Assembly (NCBI GenBank): GCA_963781755.1
Contig: CAWAGZ010000002.1
Location: forward strand, 83,325 to 147,324
Origin: an uncultured Acidobacteriota bacterium
GTDB lineage: Bacteria; Acidobacteriota; Thermoanaerobaculia; Multivoradales; JAGPDF01
Direction: 5' to 3'
DNA: 64,000 nucleotides
Under the pieces are notes generated by a model. The model saw only the letters and a program-made list of their open reading frames with translations, did not search any database and was not told the DNA's origin. Position numbers and translations under genes: made by a program. Position 1 is the first letter of the stretch, and each line of letters starts with the position of its first letter. This document shows positions 41,966-53,315 of this stretch, one piece after another.

Positions 41966-42159
41966 ATCGCGCGATTCTCTCGCCGGCCGGCGCGCCGCTG
42001 TCAAGCGATCCGGGGCCGGGCGCCCACGATTCCACGATTTCGCCACATTCACCGGCCGGATCTCCTCGCGGCGACCACCCGGCCCGCCCGCCGACACGCT
42101 CGAATGCCCGCGAGGTGACGAGGCGGAGCGGGCGGCGGCCCGCAGAAAGGAGCGACACG

Positions 42160-44280
42160 ATGTGGCCCGGTAGAAGGGAGGAGAAGCGGAGGATCCGGCG
42201 CGCGCTGATCGCGGCCCTGGCTTCGCTGGCGGCGGGGATCGCTCTCGGGCAACCATTGCAGGATTCCGGAGCCGACGGCTCGGCCGCCCGGCTGGAGCGC
42301 CCCGGCGACCTGGGCGGCGCCGGGCTGGTCGTACGCGGAGCCGGCGCGGGGCCCGACGAGGTCGGCGGCTGGCAACCCGCTCCCACGGTCGCGACCACGA
42401 TCGCGATCACCGTCACCGGCATCGTGGCGCGGGCACGGGTCGACCAGAGTTTCGACAATCCGTCCGACCAGCTCGTCGAGGCGGTCTACGTCTTCCCGCT
42501 GCCCGAAGGGGCCGCGATCGACCGGCTCGAGCTCGAGGCCGGCGGCCGGCGCATCGTCGGCCGCGTGCGCGAGCGCCAAGAGGCGCGGCGGGCCTACGAG
42601 GCCGCCAAGCAGCAGGGCCGGCGCGCCTCCCTGCTCGAGCAAGCGCGCCCCGACCTGTTCACGGTCGCGGTGGCCGGGGTCGCTCCCCACGAGCGGGTCA
42701 CGGTGCATCTCGAGTACCAGGATCTGGTGCGCTACGACCTCGGGGTCTTCCGCCTTCGCTTCCCGCTGGTCGCCGCGCCGCGCTACACGCCGCCCGCCGC
42801 CGCGCCGGCGATGGCGACGTCCGGCTTCGCGATCCTCCGCACCCCCGCCGGAGCTCCCGCGGTCGCCCTCGATCCGCCTCCGCCCGCCGCGCCGATCGTC
42901 GTCCCGGCTTCGGCCGCCGCGGCGAGGGCGTTGCGGCCGGTCCGCCTGACGGTCGACCTGCGCGCCGGCATCCCTCTGGCCGCGGTCGAGAGCCCGACCC
43001 ACTCGCTCACCGTCCACCGGGTCGAGAAGGGCCTGTGGCGGGCCGAGCTCGCCGACGGCCAGGTCGCCGCCGATCGCGACTTCGAGCTGGTCTGGCATCC
43101 ACGGCGGGAGGCGGCCCCTACCCTGGCGCGCTTCGAGCAGGACGTCGGCGGCGAGCGTTACGCCGCGCTGCTCTTCCTGCCGCCGGCGCCGGAGGCTTCC
43201 GCCGTCCCGATCCCGCGCGATCTGGTCGTCGTGCTCGACACCTCGGGCTCGATGGGCGGCGCCTCGATCGAGCAGGCCAAGCGCGCGGTGCGCGCCGCGC
43301 TCTCGCGCCTCGGCCCGGCCGACCGCTTCGACGTCATCCGCTTCGCCGACGCCGCCGAGGCGCTCTTCCCGGCCAGCGTCGAGGCCGGCCCGCGCTCGCT
43401 CGGCCAAGCCTACGCCTGGGTGGACGGGCTCGCGGCGAACGGCGGCACGAACATGCTGCCGGCACTCCGGATGGCGCTCGACGACCCGCCCGACCCGACG
43501 GTCGTGCGTCAGGTGCTCTTCGTGACCGACGGTTGCGTCGGCAACGAGGAGGAGCTCTTCTCGTACCTCGAGCAGCACCTCGGCCGCAGTCGGCTGTTCA
43601 CCGTCGGCATCGGCTCGGCGCCCAACTCCTGGTTCATGACCCGCGCCGCCGAGCTGGGCCGCGGCACGCACACGTTCATCGGCAGCGTCGCCGAGGTCGA
43701 GGACAAGATGGCCGGGCTGTTCGCCAAGCTCGAGCGCCCCGTGCTCGCCGACCTCGACGTCGTCTGGGACGACCCTTCGGCGGAGAGCTACCCGCAACTG
43801 CCCCCCGACCTCTACGTCGGCGAGCCGCTGCTGCTGGTCGCCCGGCTGGAGCGGCCGGACGCGGCGGTCCAGATTACGGGGCGGCGCACGGACGCGCCCT
43901 TCGAGGAGACCCTCGCACCGACGACGCCGCGCCCGGCTTCCGGGTTGGCGCGCCTGTGGGCGCGGCGCAAGATCGACGCGCTCGAGGCGGCGATGCGCGC
44001 CCCCGGCGCGGACCGGGACGCGCTGCGCGGCCAGATCGTGGACTTGGCGCTGGCCCACGGGCTGGCCAGCCGGTACACCAGCTTCGTCGCGGTCGAGGAG
44101 CGCCCCTCGGTGGCGCCGGGCACGCCCCAGGCCACCCGCGAGGTGGCGAACCTGCTGCCCGCGGGCTGGAACGGCGCCGAGCTGCCGCAGGGCGGCACCC
44201 GCGCTCCGCTCGAGCTGGCCGCGGCATTCCTGCTCGCGCTCGCCGGTTTCGTCCTGCGCCGGGCGGGGTCCGCGCCGTGA
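42160..44280 (+). CDS. VIT plus VWA domain sortase target protein with LPQGG sorting signal
   Basis: RBS AAAGGAG; VIT (EAVYVFPLPEGAAI), VWA (LDTSGSM, FVTDG); C-terminus LPQGGT plus hydrophobic helix plus RR. Confidence 0.9.
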   Translation: MWPGRREEKRRIRRALIAALASLAAGIALGQPLQDSGADGSAARLERPGDLGGAGLVVRGAGAGPDEVGGWQPAPTVATTIAITVTGIVARARVDQSFDNPSDQLVEAVYVFPLPEGAAIDRLELEAGGRRIVGRVRERQEARRAYEAAKQQGRRASLLEQARPDLFTVAVAGVAPHERVTVHLEYQDLVRYDLGVFRLRFPLVAAPRYTPPAAAPAMATSGFAILRTPAGAPAVALDPPPPAAPIVVPASAAAARALRPVRLTVDLRAGIPLAAVESPTHSLTVHRVEKGLWRAELADGQVAADRDFELVWHPRREAAPTLARFEQDVGGERYAALLFLPPAPEASAVPIPRDLVVVLDTSGSMGGASIEQAKRAVRAALSRLGPADRFDVIRFADAAEALFPASVEAGPRSLGQAYAWVDGLAANGGTNMLPALRMALDDPPDPTVVRQVLFVTDGCVGNEEELFSYLEQHLGRSRLFTVGIGSAPNSWFMTRAAELGRGTHTFIGSVAEVEDKMAGLFAKLERPVLADLDVVWDDPSAESYPQLPPDLYVGEPLLLVARLERPDAAVQITGRRTDAPFEETLAPTTPRPASGLARLWARRKIDALEAAMRAPGADRDALRGQIVDLALAHGLASRYTSFVAVEERPSVAPGTPQATREVANLLPAGWNGAELPQGGTRAPLELAAAFLLALAGFVLRRAGSAP

Positions 44281-44851
44281 CCTCGAAGCTCGGCGCCGTG
44301 CTCCTGGCCGCCGCGGTGGCGCTGGGCGGCGACGGCCTCTGGCTCCACGCCAAGGCCGTCCTCGCCCAGGCGCTTCTGGCCCACGCCTGGAGCGCCGCCG
44401 AGGCGGGCGACGCCCGGCCGCGTCCCTGGCCGTGGGCCGACACCTGGCCGGTGGCCCGGCTCGAGGTGCCGCGGCTGGGGATCGAGGAGATCGTGCTGGC
44501 GGGCGCCTCGGGGCGGGTCCTCGCCTTCGCCCCCGGCCACGTGGACGGCACGCCGCTGCCGGGGGAGCCCGGCAACGCGATCCTCGCCGGCCACCGAGAC
44601 ACCACCTTTCGCTTCCTCGAGCGGCTGCGACCGGGCGACCGGATCCGCACCCGGCTGCCCGACGGCCGCGAGACGCTCTTCACGGTGGACTCGACCCGCG
44701 TCCAGGACGCCGCCGACCCCTGGGCCTTCGACGGCCCCGGAGGGCGACGACCGTGCTGACGCTGGCCACCTGCTGGCCGTTCGACTCCCCCGTCCCGGGC
44801 GGCCGCCTGCGCTTCGTCGTGCGCGCCGTGGAGGCCGACCCGAAGCGCTGA
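44277..44851 (+). CDS. Class GN (dedicated, Gram-negative-type) sortase; apparent frameshift near 44743
   Basis: KAVLAQALL, PWPWADTWPVARL and AGHRDT in one frame; LTLATCWPF...RLRFVV in the next frame; His/Cys/Arg triad present. Confidence 0.88.
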
Positions 44852-44864
44852 GAGCGCCACCCGC

Positions 44865-44908
44865 CGCACCGCTGTGCGCTTCCACGCCGGCACGCGGTCC
44901 CCCAGGAT
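44865..44908 (+). promoter_or_regulatory. Palindrome CGCAC-N4-GTGCG copy 1 with downstream CAGGAT
   Basis: CGCACCGCTGTGCGCTTCC at 44865; hexamer starts 29 nt after the start of GTGCG. Confidence 0.6.
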
Positions 44909-44945
44909 CGAAGGCATCGAGACCGAACGATCCTGGAGAACCGCC

Positions 44946-45728
44946 ATGACACGACCCGTCCCTCGCACCGACCCCGATCCTCCCGTCCGCAGCGCCGCCG
45001 CGGCGCTGCTGGTCGCCGCGCTCCTGACCGGCTGCGCCGGCGTGCTCGGTGGCACCCGTCCCTTCGTGTTGCCGCTCGAAGCGCCCGCCGGCAGCGTCCC
45101 GCGCGCCGCCGTCTCCCTGGCCGGCTTCGAGGTCGCCCCGGGCGCCAACGAGGTCAAGGCGACCGGCACCTTTCCGCTCGGCGCCTTCGGCGAAGACGAC
45201 CGGCGCGTCGTCGAGCGCTCCTTTCGCGACACGCTGGCGCGGGCGAGCTGGCCCGAAGCGCCGCCGCCCGTCCGTGACTGGAAGCTCCACGTCCTGCTGC
45301 GCCGGCACCTGGTCGCCCACAGCACCAGCTCGGGCGGGGTCCTCGCCTGCGTCGGCTGGGCGCTGGTCTCGGGAGACGGCCGCGTCGTCTTCAGCGAGCA
45401 GTTCTACGCCTCGGTCGCCGGCGCCGGCTCCGGGCGGCGCAACGGCGAGAAGGTCCCGGACAACCTGGGTCGGGTCAAGGACGCTCTCCACCGAGCGATC
45501 GTGGAGCGGATCGTCGCGACCAGCGTGCGGCTGGCGTCGGAGCCCGACGGCGCGCCGCGACCGCCCGCCGTCGCGCACACCTACGAGACGATCCAGGAGG
45601 CCGCGCAACCCCTGCCCACCCGTCTGACCACGATCATGGGGATCCCGCCCATCGCCCATCGCCGGGTCGACTGGACCCTGATCGACCCGCAGCCCCCCAT
45701 CGACTGGGCCCGGCGGCTCCGGCGCTGA
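44946..45728 (+). CDS. Hypothetical lipoprotein
   Basis: RBS GGAG; lipobox ALLTG-C. Confidence 0.75.
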   Translation: MTRPVPRTDPDPPVRSAAAALLVAALLTGCAGVLGGTRPFVLPLEAPAGSVPRAAVSLAGFEVAPGANEVKATGTFPLGAFGEDDRRVVERSFRDTLARASWPEAPPPVRDWKLHVLLRRHLVAHSTSSGGVLACVGWALVSGDGRVVFSEQFYASVAGAGSGRRNGEKVPDNLGRVKDALHRAIVERIVATSVRLASEPDGAPRPPAVAHTYETIQEAAQPLPTRLTTIMGIPPIAHRRVDWTLIDPQPPIDWARRLRR

Positions 45729-45812: not shown

Positions 45813-47387
45813 GTGGAGAACCGAACCCTCTTCCCGATAGCCCGCACGCTTCGCGGACTCCGCATCGCGACGCTGCTGCTCGCCGGCGCGGGCGCCCTCG
45901 CGGCGCAAGAGCCCGGCTTCGACTGGGCGGCGCGGATCGGCGGCGCGGGCGCCGGGGACGTCGCCTGGGCCGCCGCCACCGATGCCGCCGGCAACGTCTA
46001 CGTCGCCGGCAGCTTCGGGGGCACCGTGGACTTCGACCCCGGCGCGGGAGTCCACGAGCTGACCGCGACCGTCGCCGATCCCTTCCTGGCCAGCTACGAC
46101 GCCGACGGCAACTTCCGCTGGGCCGACGCCTTCGTGGGGACCAACCTGAGCGACGAGGCCCGGGCGGTCGCGGTCGCCGGCGACGCGGTGATCGTCTGCG
46201 GCACCCACTCGAGCACGCTCGACATGGACCCGGGGCCGGGCTCGTTCCCGCTCGTCAACTCCAACCCCTCCACCTCGAACTTCTTCTGCGGCCGCTACTC
46301 CGCGGCCGACGGCGCGTTGGTCTGGGCGTTCTCGATCGGCGGCGCGGCGATCGAGCAGGCCTCGCGCGTCGCGCTCGCTCCCGGCGGCGATCTCGTCGTG
46401 GTCGGGATCTTCCAGAACACGGTCGATTTCGATCCCGGTCCGGGGAGCGCGGAGCTCACCGCCACGGTGGGCGCCGACGCCTTCTTCGCCCGCTACACCG
46501 CCGACGGGGATCTGGTCTGGGCGGAGTCCCTCCGCCAGCTCGCGACCGGCGGCTCGGGCTCCGACGAGATCGGAGGGATCGCGATCGATCCCTCGAACGG
46601 CTCGATCTACCTGGTCGGCACGCTCAGCGGCACGATGGACTTCGACCCCGGACCGGGCGAGCTCCTGCTGACCGCCTCCGGTACCGATCCCTTCCTCGCG
46701 CGCTACGACTCGGCAGGGGGCGTCCTGTGGGCCGAAGCGCTCCTCGGCTCCACCAACTCGAACCGGGCCACCGCCGCGGCGATCGGCGCCGCCGGCGAGC
46801 TCTACGTCGCCGGATTCGTCACCGGCGAGACCGATTTCGATCCCGATCCGGTCGCCACCGCGCTGCTCACCGGCCCCGGCGGCGCCGACCCCTTCCTGGC
46901 CCGCTACGAAGCGGACGGCACCTACGCCTGGGCCGGGGTGATCGGCAGCACCGGCACCGACTCCGTCGCGGACCTGCGTCGCTCGGCCGCCGGCGTGCTC
47001 ACTCTTCTGGGCGAGTACGGCGCCGAGTTCGACGCCGATCCCGGTCCGGGGACGTTCCCGCTGCCGGCGCCGATGGCCAACGTCAACGGCTTCCTGGCGC
47101 GCTACGACGCCTCCGGCGCCCTGCTCGCGGCCGGCGCCCTGCGCGAGCTCACCGGAGGCAGCAACACCGGCATCCACCCGCGCGCCCTCGACCTCGGTCC
47201 CGACCCCGGCGCGATCGCGGTCGGCTCGTTCACCTTCGAGGGCGACTTCGATCCGGGCCCGGGAGTCTTCCCGCTGACCTCCGCCGGGCTCGCCGACGCC
47301 TTCTTCCTGCGCGCCGACCCGACCCTGATCTTCGCCGACGGCTTCGAGTCCGGCGACCTCGCGCCCTGGAGCTCGGCCGTCCCCTGA
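45813..47387 (+). CDS. Secreted 7-repeat beta-propeller (SBBP-like) with C-terminal IFADGFESG tail
   Basis: Signal peptide; seven roughly 65-aa repeats with D[FMA]DP[GD]xx cores; ends IFADGFESGDLAPWSSAVP. Confidence 0.85.
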   Translation: MENRTLFPIARTLRGLRIATLLLAGAGALAAQEPGFDWAARIGGAGAGDVAWAAATDAAGNVYVAGSFGGTVDFDPGAGVHELTATVADPFLASYDADGNFRWADAFVGTNLSDEARAVAVAGDAVIVCGTHSSTLDMDPGPGSFPLVNSNPSTSNFFCGRYSAADGALVWAFSIGGAAIEQASRVALAPGGDLVVVGIFQNTVDFDPGPGSAELTATVGADAFFARYTADGDLVWAESLRQLATGGSGSDEIGGIAIDPSNGSIYLVGTLSGTMDFDPGPGELLLTASGTDPFLARYDSAGGVLWAEALLGSTNSNRATAAAIGAAGELYVAGFVTGETDFDPDPVATALLTGPGGADPFLARYEADGTYAWAGVIGSTGTDSVADLRRSAAGVLTLLGEYGAEFDADPGPGTFPLPAPMANVNGFLARYDASGALLAAGALRELTGGSNTGIHPRALDLGPDPGAIAVGSFTFEGDFDPGPGVFPLTSAGLADAFFLRADPTLIFADGFESGDLAPWSSAVP

Positions 47388-47403
47388 CCTGGAGACCTCG
47401 ATC

Positions 47404-48473
47404 ATGACTCCGATTCCTCGTGGCCTTTCCGCCCTCGCCCTCTCGGCAGCGATCGCAGGGGCCTCAGCTGCCCGCGCCGACATCTTCTGCGTCGAGACCG
47501 CGAGCCAGCTCGAGGGCGCCCTGATCGCCGCCGGACTCAACCACCAGGACGACGAGATCCGCATCCGCCCGGGCACGTACGTCGCGCCCCAGCCGGTCGG
47601 CTTCGACTACTCGCCGGGACTCGATGACGAGAACCGGGGGCTCGTGATCTCGGGAGGCTGGTCGCAGGGTTGCTCTCGACTATCGGGCCACGCGACGGAG
47701 ACGGTGCTCCAGGGCAGCGCCGACCTCCGTGCCTTGCTGCTCTTCGCCGGCTCCCAGCCGGAGCTCTTCACGATCCGGCTCCTCACCATCACCGGCGCGA
47801 CCAACGTCCCTGGCGTGGTGGTGATCTTCAGTGACACGGCCGCCGGATCGGGAGTGACGATCGACCGGGTCATCTTCCGGGACAACCAGTACACCGCTCT
47901 CTTCGTGTCGATGATCTGGACGCCGGTTCGCCTCACCGGCTGTCTCTTCCACCACAACGACATCGCCACCTCGTCGGGCGCCGCCGCGGTGATCCAGGCG
48001 ACCCACAACGACGTGGAAGTCTTCAACAACACCTTCACCGACAACACGGTCTCGGGCCTGGGTGTCGTGGCAGGGCTGCGCCTGGAGAGCAGCGACCCGC
48101 AGAACATGTACCTCGTCAACAACATCTTCTGGGGCAACGAGAACGTGGACGTGCTGGTTCCCGACAACACGCATCTCTTCTCGTACAACGACTACGGCGT
48201 CGCCGTGGGCGGCTTCCTGGGCTCGCAGAACCTGCAGGTCGACCCTCTCTTCCAGGACCCGGGCAGCGAGGACTACCGTCTCCGCTCCAATTCTCCCCTG
48301 ATCGACGCCGGCGACGACTCTGGATCCGGGTATCCAATACATCGACCTGCTGCGCACGCCGCGCCCGCGGGGGGCGAGCTGGGAGATCGGCGCCCTACGA
48401 GTTCTGGCCGCCGATCTTCGCCGATGGCTTCGAGAACGGGACCACGGGGCGTTGGAGCTCGACCGTTCCCTGA
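47404..48473 (+). CDS. Secreted right-handed beta-helix / choice-of-anchor-Q-like protein with IFADGFE tail; two apparent indels near the 3' end
   Basis: NNTFTDN, NNIFWGN, DPLF...DYRLRSNSPLIDAG. Frame-corrected end IDLLRTPRP...EIGAYEFWPPIFADGFENGTTGRWSSTVP, TGA at 48471-48473. Confidence 0.8.
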
Positions 48474-48488
48474 CCTGGAGGCCCCGAC

Positions 48489-49577
48489 ATGACCACCACC
48501 CTTCGTCGCCGACTTCCTGTTCCCGCCCTTCTCCTCCTGGCCTGGACCACCTCCCACGTGGCCCGCGCCGCGACCTTCTGCGTCGAGACCCGGGACCAGC
48601 TCGAGGGCGCCCTGATCGCGGCCGGGCTGAACCAGGAGAGCGACGAGATCCGGGTCCGTCCCGGCGTCTACCTGGCGCCGCAGCCCAACGGCTTCGACTA
48701 CCTCCCGACCGGCAACGCGATCCACTACTCCGTCACCCTCACGGGCGGTTGGTCGGCCTCGTGCACCCGGGCCACCCACGACGCCCGGCTCACCGTGCTG
48801 TTCGGGAACCTGAACGGTCCGGTGCTGCGCTTCCGCACCCCGGAGGGGACGATGCGGGTGCGCGACCTGACCCTGCAGGGCGGCTTCGTCGCCAGCGGCG
48901 TCCACGGCGCCGGCCTCCACATCGACCACACCAGCGGCTTCGGCCCGGCCGTGGAGATCGAGCGGGTGATCTTCCGCGACAACCAGGGCTACGCCGCGCT
49001 CTACGTCCAGACCAAGGGTGCGATGCTGCTCACCGGCAGCCTGTTCCACTCCAACCTGATCGACGGCACCGGCAGCGGCGCGGCCAACCTGATCAGCGAG
49101 AGCGTCAACGACCCCCGGATCACCAACAACACCTTCGCCGGCAACACGACCACGGGCTCGTCGCCGATCGGTGGGCTGCGATTGGACAACTCCGCGGCGG
49201 CCGACCCCGGCGCCAACGTCACCAACAACATCTTCTGGGGCAACGACCACTTCGACTTCCTGGTGATCGGGCACGCCGAGCCCTTCCAGTACAACGACCT
49301 GGGCAACGGCTCGGGCAGCTACACCGGGGCGAACAACACCTTCGTCGATCCGCTCTTCCTCGATCCGGCCGAGGACGACTACCGGCTGCGCTTCGACTCT
49401 CCGATGATCGACAGCGGCTCGAACACCGCCGCCTCGCTGCCCGACCTCGATCTGCTGGGCGTGGCACGGCCGCAGAACGGCACCTACGACCGGGGCGCCT
49501 ACGAGTACCGCCCCCCGATCTTCTCGGGCGACTTCGAGAGCGGCGACGCCTCGGCCTGGAGCGTGGTCCAGCCCTGA
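48489..49577 (+). CDS. Paralogous secreted beta-helix / choice-of-anchor-Q-like protein with IFSGDFESG tail
   Basis: N-terminus closely similar to the previous gene; DPLF...DYRLRFDSPMIDSG...DRGAYE; ends IFSGDFESGDASAWSVVQP. Confidence 0.85.
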   Translation: MTTTLRRRLPVPALLLLAWTTSHVARAATFCVETRDQLEGALIAAGLNQESDEIRVRPGVYLAPQPNGFDYLPTGNAIHYSVTLTGGWSASCTRATHDARLTVLFGNLNGPVLRFRTPEGTMRVRDLTLQGGFVASGVHGAGLHIDHTSGFGPAVEIERVIFRDNQGYAALYVQTKGAMLLTGSLFHSNLIDGTGSGAANLISESVNDPRITNNTFAGNTTTGSSPIGGLRLDNSAAADPGANVTNNIFWGNDHFDFLVIGHAEPFQYNDLGNGSGSYTGANNTFVDPLFLDPAEDDYRLRFDSPMIDSGSNTAASLPDLDLLGVARPQNGTYDRGAYEYRPPIFSGDFESGDASAWSVVQP

Positions 49578-49602: not shown

Positions 49603-52600
49603 GTGATCCGCCGAGCGTCGGTCGTGGCGCTGGCCCTGGTCGCCGCGGCGGCCGCGGCCGAGCGGCTGCCGGTGCGCGCCTGGGGCGCCGCCGACGGCCT
49701 GGGGCACGACCACGTCCGCTGCGCGCTGCGCGACTCTCAGGGCTTCCTCTGGTTCGGTACGGCGCTCGGCGTCAGCCGCTTCGACGGCGAGCGCTTCCGG
49801 CGCTTCGGCGTCGCCGACGGCCTGCCCGGCGCCCGGGTCCACGCGCTGGCGCAGACCGCCGACGGCAGCCTCTGGGCGGCGACCGAGCGCGGCCTGGCGC
49901 GGTTGGCTCCGGCGCCGGTGGCCACGGCGCCGCGCTTCGAAAGCGTCCCGCTTCCCGACCGGCCGGAGGCGGTCGGCGTGCGCGCTCTGCTCGTGGACTC
50001 CGACGGCTCGCTGCTGGCCGGAACCGAGCGGGGGCTGGTGCGGGTGCGCTGGACCGGCACCGGCGAGATCGAGGCGGAGGCGGTCGAGCCCTGCGACGGC
50101 GTCCGGTTCGACGTCCGCGCCCTGACCCGCGACGCGCGCGGCAAGCTCTGGATCGGCGGCGCCGACGGACGGTTGGTGGGCGGATCCGGAGACGGTTGCC
50201 GGAGCCTCGAGCTGGCGGCTCCCGGCCAGTGGATCCGCGCCCTGGCGGTCGACCGGAGAGGCCGGCTCTGGATCGGGTCCGACGCCGGCCTCGCGCGACT
50301 CGACGATCCCGGCGCGGCGGGACCGGTCCGGCGCATCGGCCCGGCCGAAGGGGTCGCCGCGAACCGCGTGCGCTCGCTCCACGAGGATCCGGACGGAGTG
50401 CTCTGGATCGGAGCCGTCGGTGGCCTCTACCGCGGCGACGGCGAGCGCTTCGAGCGCTACACCGTCGCCGACGGCCTGCCCGACGAGACGGTCAACGGCT
50501 TCGCGCGCGATCGCAACGGCCGGCTCTGGCTGGCCACGGACAGCGCCGGCGCGGTGCGGCTGCTCGAGGACGGCTTCGTCAGTTACGACCGCGCCGACGG
50601 GCTCGGCCACCCTTCGGTCTCGAACCTGTTCGAGGACCGCGACGGAGCGCTGGTCGTCGGCGGCGAGGTCGGCGGGTGGATCTCGCGGCGCGCCGGCAGC
50701 CGCTTCGAGGGACTGCAGCCGAAGCTGCCGGCGGCGCTCGCGGCGCGGGTCGCGGGCTCGGTCACCTGGGCGCTCGAGGACCACGCCGGCGAATGGTGGC
50801 TGGCCACCGTCGGCGGGCTCGTCCGCTACGCGCGGCCGGCGCGCTTCGGCGACCTCGCCCGCACCGCGCCGCTCGCGGTGTGGGGAACCGGCCGCGGCCT
50901 GCCCGCCGACTGGTGCTATCGCCTGTTCGAGACCGGCTCGGGGGAGCTCTGGGTCGCCACCGACCGCGGCGACGACGGTGACACCCTGGCGCGCATCGCC
51001 GCCGACCGCCGTGGCGTCGAGCGCTTCGGTCCGGCCTCCGGCCTGCCCGGCCGTGGCGGCGCCTCGAGCTTCGCCGAGTCGCCGGACGGCGGCCTCTGGG
51101 TGGGCTGGAGCGACGGCTCGCTGCTGCGCTTCGAGGGTGGCCGATTCCGCCGGGTCGGCGGCCCCGACGGCTACCCGGTCCAGGACCTGCTGTCCGGCCC
51201 CGACGGTCTCTGGCTGGCCACGGGCGGCGCCGGCCTGGGCCGGCTGGGGCCGGACGGAGTGGACGGAGCGCGCAGCGGCGGCCCGGTCCCGGCCGGACCG
51301 CCGGAGCTCGCCCACGCCGATATCCGGGCCCTCGCCCGGGGTGCCGACGGCATTCTCTGGATCGCCACCACGGAGGGGGTCTTCCGCTGGCGCACCGGCG
51401 ACGAGCGCGCCCGCCGTTTCACCGGCGCCGAGGGGCTGGCCGGCCTCGAGGCGACCGCCGTCCACGTCGACCGGAGCGGAGCGGTCTGGGTCGGCACCTA
51501 CAACGGGCTGTCGCGCAGGAGCGGCGAGACGCGGCGCTCGGCGCCGCCGCCGACCCCGCTGTGGATCCGCTCGCTCGAGATCGACGGCGCGGTGGTGCCG
51601 GTGTCGCCGCTCGGCCAGGACCGACTGGGACCGCTGAGCCTCGGCGCCGGCCGTCACCGGCTGCGCATCGGCCTGCTCGGCCTGGCTTTCGGCCCGGGCG
51701 AGTCGCTGCGCGTGCGCTACCGGCTGGTCGGCCTCGACTCGACCTGGAGCGCCCCGGCGGAAGCCACCTCGCTGACCTTCGGCGGGATCGGCGCCGGCCG
51801 CTACCGGTTCGAGGCGGTGGCGGCGGGCGCCGGCTCCGCGGCGCGCCCCGCGGTCATCGAATGGCTCGTCCCGCCGCCCCTCTGGCAGCGCGGCTGGTTC
51901 CTCGGCCTGATCGCGCTGGCGGTCGCCGCGGCCGGAGTCGGCGGCCACCGTCTGCGGGTGGCGCGCCTGCTCGAGGTCGAGCGCGTCCGCAGCCGCATCG
52001 CGGGCGACCTGCACGACGATCTCTCGGCCAACCTGACCCGGATCTCCATCCTCTCCGAGGTCGCCCGGCGCGGCCTTCCCGGCGACGGCGCCGAGCGCGT
52101 CGCGCCGCTGCTGACCGAGATCGGCGAGGGCGCCCGCGACCTGCTCGACTCGACCCGCGACCTGGTCTGGGCGATCGACCCGCGCGAGGAGACGCTGGCC
52201 GCGCTCGTCGCGCGCCTGCGCTCCTTCCTCGCGGGCCTGCTCGACGCCACCGAAGTGGCGTGGCGGCTGACCACGAGCGGCGAGCCGGCCGCGGTCCATC
52301 TCGGACCCGAGGCGCGCCGCCATCTCCTGCTGCTGCTCAAGGAGGCGGTCCACAACGCGATCCGGCACGGCCGGCCGGGGCGTCTCGAAGTGCGCCTCGA
52401 CGCCGGCCCGGAGGGGCTGCACGCGACGATCGAGGACGACGGTCGCGGCTTCGACGCGGACGCGTTGCTCAGCTCGGGCGGGCTCGGGCGGGGCCTGCGC
52501 GGCATGGAGCAACGGGCGCGCGCCCTGGGCGGCCGCCTGCGGGTCGAATCCCGGCCCGGAGTGGGTACCTGTGTCCGGCTGGAAGCCGCGCTGCCGGTGA

Positions 52601-52656
52601 GGCGCACGGATGTGCGCTCCTTCTCGCGCCGCCGATCGGAGAGACTGGGACGATGA
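49603..52656 (+). CDS. Periplasmic beta-propeller (Reg_prop/Y_Y_Y) sensor histidine kinase, HisKA_3 type
   Basis: Repeated DxxGxLW blades; YRLVG...GRYRFEA; TM helix; RIAGDLHDDL, KEAVHNAIRH, DDGRG, GRGLRGM. Confidence 0.93.
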   Translation: MIRRASVVALALVAAAAAAERLPVRAWGAADGLGHDHVRCALRDSQGFLWFGTALGVSRFDGERFRRFGVADGLPGARVHALAQTADGSLWAATERGLARLAPAPVATAPRFESVPLPDRPEAVGVRALLVDSDGSLLAGTERGLVRVRWTGTGEIEAEAVEPCDGVRFDVRALTRDARGKLWIGGADGRLVGGSGDGCRSLELAAPGQWIRALAVDRRGRLWIGSDAGLARLDDPGAAGPVRRIGPAEGVAANRVRSLHEDPDGVLWIGAVGGLYRGDGERFERYTVADGLPDETVNGFARDRNGRLWLATDSAGAVRLLEDGFVSYDRADGLGHPSVSNLFEDRDGALVVGGEVGGWISRRAGSRFEGLQPKLPAALAARVAGSVTWALEDHAGEWWLATVGGLVRYARPARFGDLARTAPLAVWGTGRGLPADWCYRLFETGSGELWVATDRGDDGDTLARIAADRRGVERFGPASGLPGRGGASSFAESPDGGLWVGWSDGSLLRFEGGRFRRVGGPDGYPVQDLLSGPDGLWLATGGAGLGRLGPDGVDGARSGGPVPAGPPELAHADIRALARGADGILWIATTEGVFRWRTGDERARRFTGAEGLAGLEATAVHVDRSGAVWVGTYNGLSRRSGETRRSAPPPTPLWIRSLEIDGAVVPVSPLGQDRLGPLSLGAGRHRLRIGLLGLAFGPGESLRVRYRLVGLDSTWSAPAEATSLTFGGIGAGRYRFEAVAAGAGSAARPAVIEWLVPPPLWQRGWFLGLIALAVAAAGVGGHRLRVARLLEVERVRSRIAGDLHDDLSANLTRISILSEVARRGLPGDGAERVAPLLTEIGEGARDLLDSTRDLVWAIDPREETLAALVARLRSFLAGLLDATEVAWRLTTSGEPAAVHLGPEARRHLLLLLKEAVHNAIRHGRPGRLEVRLDAGPEGLHATIEDDGRGFDADALLSSGGLGRGLRGMEQRARALGGRLRVESRPGVGTCVRLEAALPVRRTDVRSFSRRRSERLGR
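52602..52646 (+). promoter_or_regulatory. Palindrome GCGCAC-N4-GTGCGC copy 3 with downstream GAGACT (internal promoter of the response regulator)
   Basis: GCGCACGGATGTGCGCTCC inside the kinase 3' end; hexamer at 52641-52646, 6 nt before ATG 52653. Confidence 0.6.
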
Positions 52657-53315
52657 ATCCGGAACCCTCCGCGGCGCGGCCCCTGGCCGTCGCCATCGTC
52701 GAGGACGACCGCGGCACGCGCGAGGGTCTGGCGATGCTCGCCGGCGGCACGCCGGGCTACCTCTGCGTCGGCAGTTGGGGTTCGGTCGAGGAGGCGCTGC
52801 ATGCCGCCGTGGCCTCGCCGCCGCTGGTCATCCTGCTCGACATCGACCTGCCGGGCGTGCCCGGATCGGAGGGGGTCGCGAAGCTGCGCGAGCGCTTCCC
52901 GGAAGCGACCGTGATCATGCTCACCGTCTACGACGGCGAAGACCAGGTCTTTCTCTCGATCCTGAACGGCGCCAGCGGTTACCTGCTCAAGAGCACGCCT
53001 CCGGCGCGGCTGCTCGAAGCGATCGGCGAGGCCGCCGCCGGCGGCGCGCCGATGACGCCGATCGTCGCCCAACGGGTGCTCGGAATGCTGCGCGGCGGCT
53101 CGCCGCCGCCGGCGCGCTCGAGAGTGGAGCTCACGGCGCCGCAACGACGGCTGCTCGAGCTGCTCGCCGACGGCCACGGCTATCGCGCGGCGGCGGCCGA
53201 GATGGGGATCAGCACCAACACCGTCCGCAATCACGTCCGCGCGGTCTACGACAAGCTCCACGTGCACTCGAAGAACGAGGCCGTCGCCCGCGCCCTGCGC
53301 GCCGGCCTGATTTGA
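52653..53315 (+). CDS. NarL/FixJ family response regulator
   Basis: IVEDD, LLDIDLPG, GYLLK, ISTNTVRNHVRAVYDKLHV. Confidence 0.95.
   Translation: MNPEPSAARPLAVAIVEDDRGTREGLAMLAGGTPGYLCVGSWGSVEEALHAAVASPPLVILLDIDLPGVPGSEGVAKLRERFPEATVIMLTVYDGEDQVFLSILNGASGYLLKSTPPARLLEAIGEAAAGGAPMTPIVAQRVLGMLRGGSPPPARSRVELTAPQRRLLELLADGHGYRAAAAEMGISTNTVRNHVRAVYDKLHVHSKNEAVARALRAGLI

Follow-up and report, generated by a model that had tools for sequence, protein, structure and literature searches.

The stretch of DNA analyzed here, referred to as the window, covers 64,000 nucleotides (G000:C2:83325-147324) of G000, a 3.85-Mb, 72% GC, 15-contig genome of an uncultured Acidobacteriota bacterium. Three successive genes of the window encode proteins with signal peptides that share a C-terminal tail of about 20 residues. 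An earlier note on this DNA had proposed that the tail is an uncharacterized export or anchoring signal, possibly recognized by outer-membrane machinery. Here we describe the tail as a tag that recurs throughout the genome, together with a candidate partner encoded by a single gene outside the window. It is probably a plug-in docking tag and not a classical sorting signal, because it looks like the missing first hairpin of a separately encoded domain. The evidence for both tag and partner is computational throughout. The relevant features of the window are as follows.

45813..47387, + strand: cargo gene 1, an open reading frame (ORF) of 524 aa with signal peptide, SBBP-like beta-propeller and C-terminal tag
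45813..45905, + strand: gene 1 signal peptide, about residues 1-31 with an approximate cleavage site, RGLRIATLLLAGAGALAAQ (translation read by eye; positive in the stricter heuristic)
47325..47384, + strand: gene 1 tag LIFADGFESGDLAPWSSAVP, then stop (hidden Markov model (HMM) domain of 39.1 bits, ending at the stop)
47404..48473, + strand: cargo gene 2, with signal peptide, right-handed beta-helix and tag, its frame broken twice (three-frame reading)
48411..48470, + strand: gene 2 tag PIFADGFENGTTGRWSSTVP, with the stop at 48471-48473 (HMM domain of 39.2 bits, ending at the stop)
48489..49577, + strand: cargo gene 3, an ORF of 362 aa with signal peptide (residues 1-27), beta-helix, choice-of-anchor Q domain and tag
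49515..49574, + strand: gene 3 tag PIFSGDFESGDASAWSVVQP, then stop (HMM domain of 38.6 bits, ending at the stop)

The basic description given in the earlier note was confirmed. The three tails lie where it had placed them and end LIFADGFESGDLAPWSSAVP, PIFADGFENGTTGRWSSTVP (frame-corrected) and PIFSGDFESGDASAWSVVQP. All three proteins open with signal peptides of textbook type as read by eye, and their bodies are a beta-propeller and two beta-helices. Protein 1 scores 20.3 bits against the Pfam family SBBP (PF06739, cutoff 20.5) and 46 bits against the NCBIfam model Lepto_SBBP_lipo, far under its cutoff of 400. Proteins 2 and 3 match the Pfam family Beta_helix at 25.9 and 23.5 bits, and residues 298-340 of protein 3 match choice-of-anchor Q (NF041518) at 40.1 bits, above the cutoff of 25. 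No Pfam or NCBIfam model matches the tails of the three proteins at E<=1. Gene 2 reaches its tag only via two +1 frame changes, near 48330 and 48395, and its ortholog P0184 (355 aa) is intact with an uninterrupted frame. The two breaks fall within about 70 bases (48300-48420). Many other tag ORFs of G000 are shortened or open in sequence that looks to be in the wrong frame, and 6 of 84 segments are shorter than 150 aa. The pattern, in gene 2 and genome-wide, hints at assembly indel errors rather than true pseudogenes, although the breaks of gene 2 itself would fit either.

The proposal that the tail lacks a transmembrane helix and is a terminal module independent of its passenger also held up. 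In an AlphaFold2 (AF2) monomer model of protein 3 (mean predicted local distance difference test, pLDDT, 85.2) the beta-helix is predicted with confidence, and pLDDT falls below 50 over residues 346-362, which have no secondary structure and stand apart from the beta-helix. Orthologs of protein 3 carry different modules at this site: the full tag, a short tag stopping at GFD or GFE, or an unrelated domain of about 130 aa. One of the orthologs with the short end comes from a Dokdonella metagenome-assembled genome (MAG). No orthologs of protein 3 were found in the five tag-free genomes in which they were sought for comparison of C-termini. Because orthologs swap their C-termini and AF2 leaves the tail unstructured, we regard the tail as a free, exchangeable module.

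An HMM of 26 positions was built from 67 regular-expression seeds and searched against six-frame segments of at least 50 aa. The scan that the earlier note had called for showed a wide occurrence, with 97 domains in G000 at an independent E-value below 0.1 and positive results in 34 of 41 genomes of the order. The expectation of a strictly C-terminal position held for 84 of the 97, which end no more than 5 residues from a stop codon, and failed for about 6 copies that open the mature protein, immediately after signal-peptide cleavage. Of the 13 non-terminal copies, those that remain resemble C-termini that were extended or frame-broken. The 84 terminal tags are regular, ending exactly 5 residues past the last W in 66 cases and in a terminal Pro in 70, so that the usual form closes with W-S-x-x-x-P and a stop; 35 of them have another tag gene no more than 3 kb away. 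An alignment of 43 tails shows F, E and W without exception, and the motif is acidic, with D, E and D invariant or nearly so. The tails carry no hydrophobic stretch and end 5 residues past the W. Their likeness is far beyond chance. The six proteins with an N-terminal tag, in which the tag then runs into a Pro-rich or Cys-containing linker, are encoded at these places of G000.

C5:12281-14368: N-terminal tag protein
C1:80952-81920: N-terminal tag protein
C3:301258-302670: N-terminal tag protein
C10:44379-47105, - strand: N-terminal tag protein
C9:11231-13372: N-terminal tag protein
C2:315992-316876: N-terminal tag protein

The association with Sec signals and with diverse passengers, both named as checks in the earlier note, was recovered as well. 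With a stricter heuristic and a crude start model, signal peptides were scored on 46 of 69 tag proteins and on 414 of 1631 control ORFs (p=2.5e-12). Several of the tag proteins scored negative plainly start with a signal peptide or are truncated by breaks in the frame. A first heuristic was discarded as too permissive, since 56% of the control set scored positive. Among 51 tag proteins with a usable start, 42 full-length ones were scanned and carried 42 different Pfam families. These include Beta_helix (5), DUF5122 (4), DUF1554 (3) and Peptidase_S8 (2), along with GDSL lipases, GSDH, cytochrome c7 and DUF1501. One tag ORF opens with a twin-arginine-like motif, as read by eye.

The tag is abundant in a narrow part of the phylum. 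Carriers within the order mostly hold 40 to at least 150 copies, and the 7 tag-free genomes among the 41 include G010, which belongs to the window's genus and is 91% complete. Across 201 genomes sampled evenly over the phylum, all at least 90% complete, the tag occurs in 12, and high counts are confined to the window's order and a second lineage within the class (G199). Scanning a single genome for each species gave 216 confirmed tag places, of which the best 80 were examined. The tag ends within 6 residues of a stop at 69 of these, and the contigs are mostly labelled Thermoanaerobaculia, Holophagae or Acidobacteriota. Other labels are Polyangiaceae, Gemmatimonadota, a gammaproteobacterial MAG and the cultured Marinicella litoralis KMM 3900. 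At L109 and L078, tag loci of other MAGs, a stop falls inside or just past the W of the tag (TSRW, stop, SITP, stop; and SGWS, stop), and these may be premature stops or sequencing errors. At L047, on a contig labelled Candidatus Bathyarchaeota, the motif lies 37 residues from the ORF start and is followed by more than 1000 residues. Submitter labels on tag loci are unreliable, since the match coordinates of L093 and L094, from a MAG labelled Deltaproteobacteria, are identical to those of G036, a genome of the window's order.

At 5 of the best 80 loci, in four Chloroflexota MAGs and one genome labelled Enterobacteriaceae, the motif forms the first ~22 residues of a complete C-terminal domain of about 205 aa that ends FDxFESRR. 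The hairpin consensus at the opening of this domain reads phi-F-x-D-G-F-E-S-G-D-x-x-x-W-S. Large proteins of the relatives G036, G037, G009, G039 and G026 likewise carry the tag motif ahead of body domains (the part of the domain that follows the tag), and whole domains of the relatives often form tandem sets of two or three that close proteins of 600-2100 aa. Giant proteins of G036 and G037 (L167, L170-L173; 1200-2100 aa in the part read) end in 2-3 such tandem units of tag and body. An AF2 model of the whole Chloroflexota-type domain (mean pLDDT 71.5) was compared with known structures by Foldseek and gave at least 500 PDB matches at E<=0.001. The best was 7ncz, a polysaccharide lyase family 7 (PL7) alginate lyase (E 4e-8, template modelling score ~0.5), followed by TtX122, PL20 and LamG-type domains. 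Against Pfam, the start of the whole domain scores under the cutoffs of PF14099 (Polysacc_lyase; 15.8 bits, cutoff 29.9) and PF02018 (CBM_4_9; 13.9 bits, cutoff 25.9). By its predicted fold the whole domain is a concanavalin A (ConA)-like jelly roll, and judged by sequence likeness the tag and the body are both homologous to one family of jelly-roll domains.

A profile of the domain minus its first hairpin (A4) matches exactly one ORF in G000, located outside the window at G000:C4:228934-229626 and encoding 230 aa. This gene, termed the acceptor, has a GGAG ribosome-binding site. Its product carries a Sec signal peptide ending LATSTAFA, after which the mature protein begins ANSLVVNAGAALNATNFGLQ, and its C-terminus is YYFDEFESYR. 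The mature N-terminus (ANSLVV) aligns with whole domains exactly past the end of the tag. Because the single A4 match begins past the tag, G000 holds at least 84 orphan hairpins and one orphan body, with no whole domain. All 12 acceptor homologs read from relatives have the same start and are tag-less. No Pfam or NCBIfam model covers the acceptor family, whose members are called only ‘hypothetical protein’ by the sources. In G000 the neighbors of the acceptor gene are a sulfatase and an AlgX-like gene; the sulfatase lies beside the acceptor gene in no more than 4 genomes, and the AlgX-like gene was seen there only in G000.

The separation of hairpin and body extends across the family. An HMM search of a wider database returned 1753 cluster representatives of the body at E<=1e-3, and 179 body-family proteins were classified by size (small, up to 260 aa) and by the presence of a tag in cis. 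Of these, 96 are small, single-body and tag-less, and a single small protein has a tag in cis. A further 57 are large with a tag ahead of every body, and 22 have one ahead of some bodies, these being mostly N-truncated fragments. One large protein lacks the tag and two proteins have no visible body. This classification indicates that stand-alone bodies are systematically hairpin-less and that embedded domains keep the hairpin. A search for longer fused forms in a large protein collection gave one protein of 1131 aa, which was uninformative.

Tags and bodies also occur together. The 41 relatives were searched for bodies with a profile (A5) and a broader one (A7), and the results were combined with the tag counts. 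In the 29 genomes with at least 14 tags, a small or SLH-fused body is present in 26, only a cis domain in 1, and none in 2. The 7 tag-free genomes, from seven genera, have no body with A5, and none was found with A7 in the 5 of them that are at least 90% complete. The association gives a Fisher p=4e-6, with the relatives being non-independent samples. In the second lineage, at least 42 tags of G199 are accompanied by a single tag-less acceptor, and G179, from the family of G199, has neither tags nor a body. In G198, which has 3 tags, a small protein is unsplit and consists of signal peptide, tag and body. Tail and body thus break at complementary points, each half is an orphan, and the two co-occur.

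In genus g7 the partner carries an anchor of its own. The sole body in all three genomes is a protein of 440-447 aa comprising a signal peptide, a tag-less body and an extension of about 195 aa with S-layer homology (SLH) domains, which match PF00395 at 45-47 bits against a cutoff of 20.8 in all 3 proteins. The g7 tags are also C-terminal. From these domain matches, the g7 partner is evidently a cell-wall-anchored protein. A hint of covariation between the two halves was not counted, as paralogous tails are non-independent: Arg stands at tag position x in 20 of the 84 tails of G000, whose acceptor has E205, versus 0 of 29 g7 tails, where the acceptor has V.

A second break point was found outside the phylum. 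Seven proteins of Marinicella litoralis (G041, L216-L222) end in DLIFxDGFE followed directly by a stop, compared with none for a reversed-pattern control; such ends are absent from G000, G010 and G045. Across 31 Marinicella relatives (G241-G270 among them) the short tail ends 5-43 proteins per genome in 27, a single protein in 1 and none in 3, with controls giving 0-1 per genome. The bodies of this group are cut to match. All 12 that were read start, after the signal peptide, with xCDxxNxxAW, so that the W strand is kept and the first strand alone is absent. Because the Marinicella tails and bodies are both broken one strand earlier, tail and body complement each other at two separate cut sites. 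The short FxDGFE tail is a second terminal tag, undescribed in the literature searched.

Complex prediction was run with the mature acceptor (alignment of 11) and 32-residue tails (alignment of 33, with window gene 1 as the first row). The ipSAE scores were 0.77, 0.82 and 0.81, and the best of three controls reached 0.00. The pLDDT of the partner was at least 73, and at least 82% of contacts were common to the runs. In calibration of the predictor, 58 of the 80 solved complexes reached this score level, as did 2 of the 110 mismatched pairs. The model places L13-F19 of the tag (LIFADGF) antiparallel to the last strand of the acceptor (202-208) and pairs W27-A30 (WSSA) with residues 32-35. These predictions support binding of the tag to the acceptor.

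Taken together, the explanation we favor, with confidence only slightly above even, is that the tail is a docking tag made of one half of a split domain and acts by fold complementation. A jelly-roll domain of about 205 aa would have been split in two in this clade, such that some 85 exported proteins of unrelated folds bear the hairpin alone and a single gene supplies the remainder. After export, the tag would insert as a beta-hairpin between the C-terminal strand of the acceptor (FDEFESYR) and the strand at 29-37. Insertion would rebuild the jelly roll non-covalently and plug many enzymes and binding proteins onto a common adaptor. Where the adaptor bears SLH domains, as in g7, tagged proteins would be held at the cell wall; the G000 adaptor, with no recognizable anchor, may bind polysaccharide via its lectin-like body. 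Physical binding of tag to acceptor is inferred from the complex models, and we likewise infer the non-covalent bond, the location and the anchoring role. The fullest version of the proposal is a natural ‘tag and catcher’ system in which about 3% of genes would encode exported proteins that dock on one adaptor via a split lectin-like domain. This would be a cellulosome-like display with two break points, in Acidobacteriota and Marinicella-type Gammaproteobacteria, wired to SLH domains in one genus. We hold it tentatively, at somewhat less than even confidence.

Several observations count against docking by fold complementation. AF2 of the natural whole domain gives pLDDT<50 for the first 42 residues, leaving the position of the hairpin in cis without independent confirmation. 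The predicted binding comes from one predictor, and the halves of a split fold can score high through resemblance to contiguous solved folds; the likeness of the joined halves to a contiguous fold is itself the hypothesis. Exceptions to co-occurrence exist. G035 (133 tags, 97% complete) has only the cis domain, with A5, A7 and the g7 protein as queries, and no body was found in G011 (42 tags, 93% complete) or G007 (62 tags, 65% complete). Among the Marinicella-type genomes the association is loose: a body turned up in 18 of the 26 with at least 5 short tails and in 2 of the 4 with 0-1, these genomes coming without completeness figures. Tag-lessness was read directly in about 18 acceptors of the Acidobacteriota type and deduced for the rest from small ORF size. 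No neighbor of the acceptor gene is conserved over 14 loci. The G000 acceptor has no transmembrane helix, lipobox or SLH domain, and no SLH domain was found anywhere in G000 by a search whose positive controls responded. Finally, the stoichiometry is uneven, one acceptor gene standing against about 85 cargo genes.

This last imbalance would suit a recycled carrier, and the alternative that survives best accordingly keeps the binding and changes its purpose. The body would bind the tag as a periplasmic pilot or chaperone that delivers cargo to an export route or holds it until folded, and would not be a static anchor. The G000 acceptor, with a Sec signal peptide and no anchor, fits such a role, as does the presence in the tag set of a DUF1501 member and the ORF with a twin-arginine-like motif, because of which the tag would also act on proteins exported folded. 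We nonetheless consider a pilot or chaperone unlikely. The SLH fusion of g7 points to a fixed location at the wall, no transporter or outer-membrane gene is a conserved neighbor in 14 loci, and whole cis domains, often in tandem, end giant proteins as binding modules do.

The closest relative of the original proposal is a tail that functions on its own as a sorting or export signal, recognized by envelope machinery yet to be described, and that resembles the start of a domain through descent only. The terminal position, the fixed distance to the stop (66/84), the terminal Pro (70/84) and the enrichment on proteins with signal peptides are all as expected of such a signal, and the tag occupies the site of other C-terminal modules in orthologs. 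PEP-CTERM and type IX secretion system (T9SS) signals are comparably abundant in their carriers. Against this, no candidate machinery emerged and the tag occurs at either end of the mature protein. A sorting signal also leaves unexplained why a single hairpin-less body is conserved just where the tags are, and why tail and body are complementary at two break points. We therefore think this account quite improbable. For the earlier claim, nothing points to outer-membrane secretion or processing machinery that reads the tail; the hairpin homology and the single hairpin-less body were found instead. Of the two roles it had offered, attachment fits better than export, given the SLH anchors of the g7 partner.

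Least probable in our view is that the tail acts alone, as an acidic-aromatic hairpin that binds Ca2+ or a surface glycan, self-associates, or is a mere remnant of truncated domains: its acidic residues (D, E, D) with F, F and W, and the tags of G035, G011 and G007 without a detectable stand-alone body, would agree with this, and ConA-like and carbohydrate-binding module folds often have structural Ca2+ sites at this edge, but the invariance of F, E and W in 43 tails on unrelated passengers argues for selection on the tag, a peptide of 20 residues whose pLDDT is below 50 probably does not fold by itself, and the body is likewise absent from tag-free genomes.

Other features of the window were noted around the tagged genes. 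Directly upstream lies a sortase pair (42115-44759, +), whose first gene encodes a marine proteobacterial sortase target protein (TIGR03788, 670 bits, cutoff 552) and whose second encodes a class GN sortase (TIGR03784, 153.8 bits, cutoff 158.25). The pair appears unrelated to the tag. Between it and gene 1, an ORF of 284 aa (44874-45728, +) directly upstream of gene 1 has a lipobox-like LLTGC and matches no NCBIfam family at E<=1e-5. Downstream are a sensor histidine kinase of 1017 aa with propeller-type repeats (49603-53315, +) and an ORF that by eye resembles a NarL/FixJ-type response regulator. A complete rRNA operon on the minus strand (18105-23338; 5S 18105-18221, 23S 18321-21333, 16S 21782-23338), with two tRNAs in its spacer (21486-21558 and 21593-21666), accounts for a dip in GC to 58%.

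If correct, docking by fold complementation would represent a previously unrecognized way for bacteria to organize their exported proteome, in which about 100 different enzymes share most of a binding or anchoring domain, encoded by one gene, and each bears only a 20-residue plug. An orphan motif that is very abundant in Acidobacteriota, a phylum dominant in soil and sediment but poorly cultured, would be accounted for, as would the shorter FxDGFE tail of marine Gammaproteobacteria. The proposal would also delimit the cargo of a surface or periplasmic scaffold and give annotators two new families, tag and acceptor. A natural short peptide and protein pair could be of use in protein engineering. 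Neither tag nor partner belongs to a curated family, and no description of them appears in the titles and abstract openings of the literature searched. Occurrences of the string GFESGD among the matches listed are unrelated by title and abstract opening. The literature on choice-of-anchor domains has nothing on the tag in the titles and abstract openings of the matches listed, and no literature was found on Thermoanaerobaculia sorting signals or on Acidobacteriota S-layer homology.

Among known systems, the tripartite signals of LPXTG/sortase, PEP-CTERM/exosortase and GlyGly-CTERM/rhombosortase resemble the tag as genome-wide C-terminal tags on signal-peptide proteins with varied passengers and choice-of-anchor domains ahead. 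The present tag differs in having no transmembrane helix, basic cluster or cognate sorting enzyme and in occurring N-terminally as well, and no curated sorting-domain model matches the tails of the three window proteins (NCBIfam, E<=1). The T9SS C-terminal domain (CTD) is likewise found on many secreted proteins within one clade, after passengers of beta-helix and propeller type, but it is a complete beta-sandwich of 70-100 aa as opposed to a 20-aa tail. No match to a TIGR04183/PF18962-type CTD was found (NCBIfam at E<=1 on the window proteins; Pfam on 42 tag proteins). PL7 alginate lyases, TtX122 and LamG/CBM_4_9 domains match the whole domain at the level of fold; identity is only 10-15% and the Pfam scores are under cutoff.

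In SpyTag/SpyCatcher, which is engineered and covalent via an isopeptide bond, a short peptide similarly completes a truncated beta-sandwich domain. The pair described here is natural, and no conserved Lys suggestive of a covalent bond appears in the acceptor conservation list. In cellulosomes, cohesin-dockerin docking operates with SLH-anchored scaffoldins, the dockerin being an autonomous Ca2+-binding fold of about 70 aa and the cohesin a complete domain. The parallels are a short terminal module on many secreted enzymes, a common receptor module and, in g7, a receptor that bears SLH domains. The present tag has 20 aa, would by prediction form an integral hairpin within the fold of the receptor itself and has no sequence relation to dockerins. 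The hallmark of these is a duplicated Ca2+-binding F-hand (PF00404, ~22 aa x2); here the motif is single, and no Pfam model matches the tails of the 42 proteins scanned.

Donor-strand complementation, as seen in chaperone-usher and type V pili and as reported for archaeal cannulae (10.1101/2024.12.30.630787), would come closest in mechanism. There an incomplete beta-sandwich is completed by a strand donated in trans and the donor segment has to be terminal, as is proposed here. Those systems polymerize like subunits of an Ig-like fold, whereas about 85 unrelated cargos would here donate a two-strand hairpin to one non-polymerizing ConA-like jelly roll. No chaperone or usher was found, and the acceptor has no conserved neighbors in 14 loci. 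By analogy, then, the tag and acceptor would work like donor-strand complementation and be used like cohesin-dockerin.

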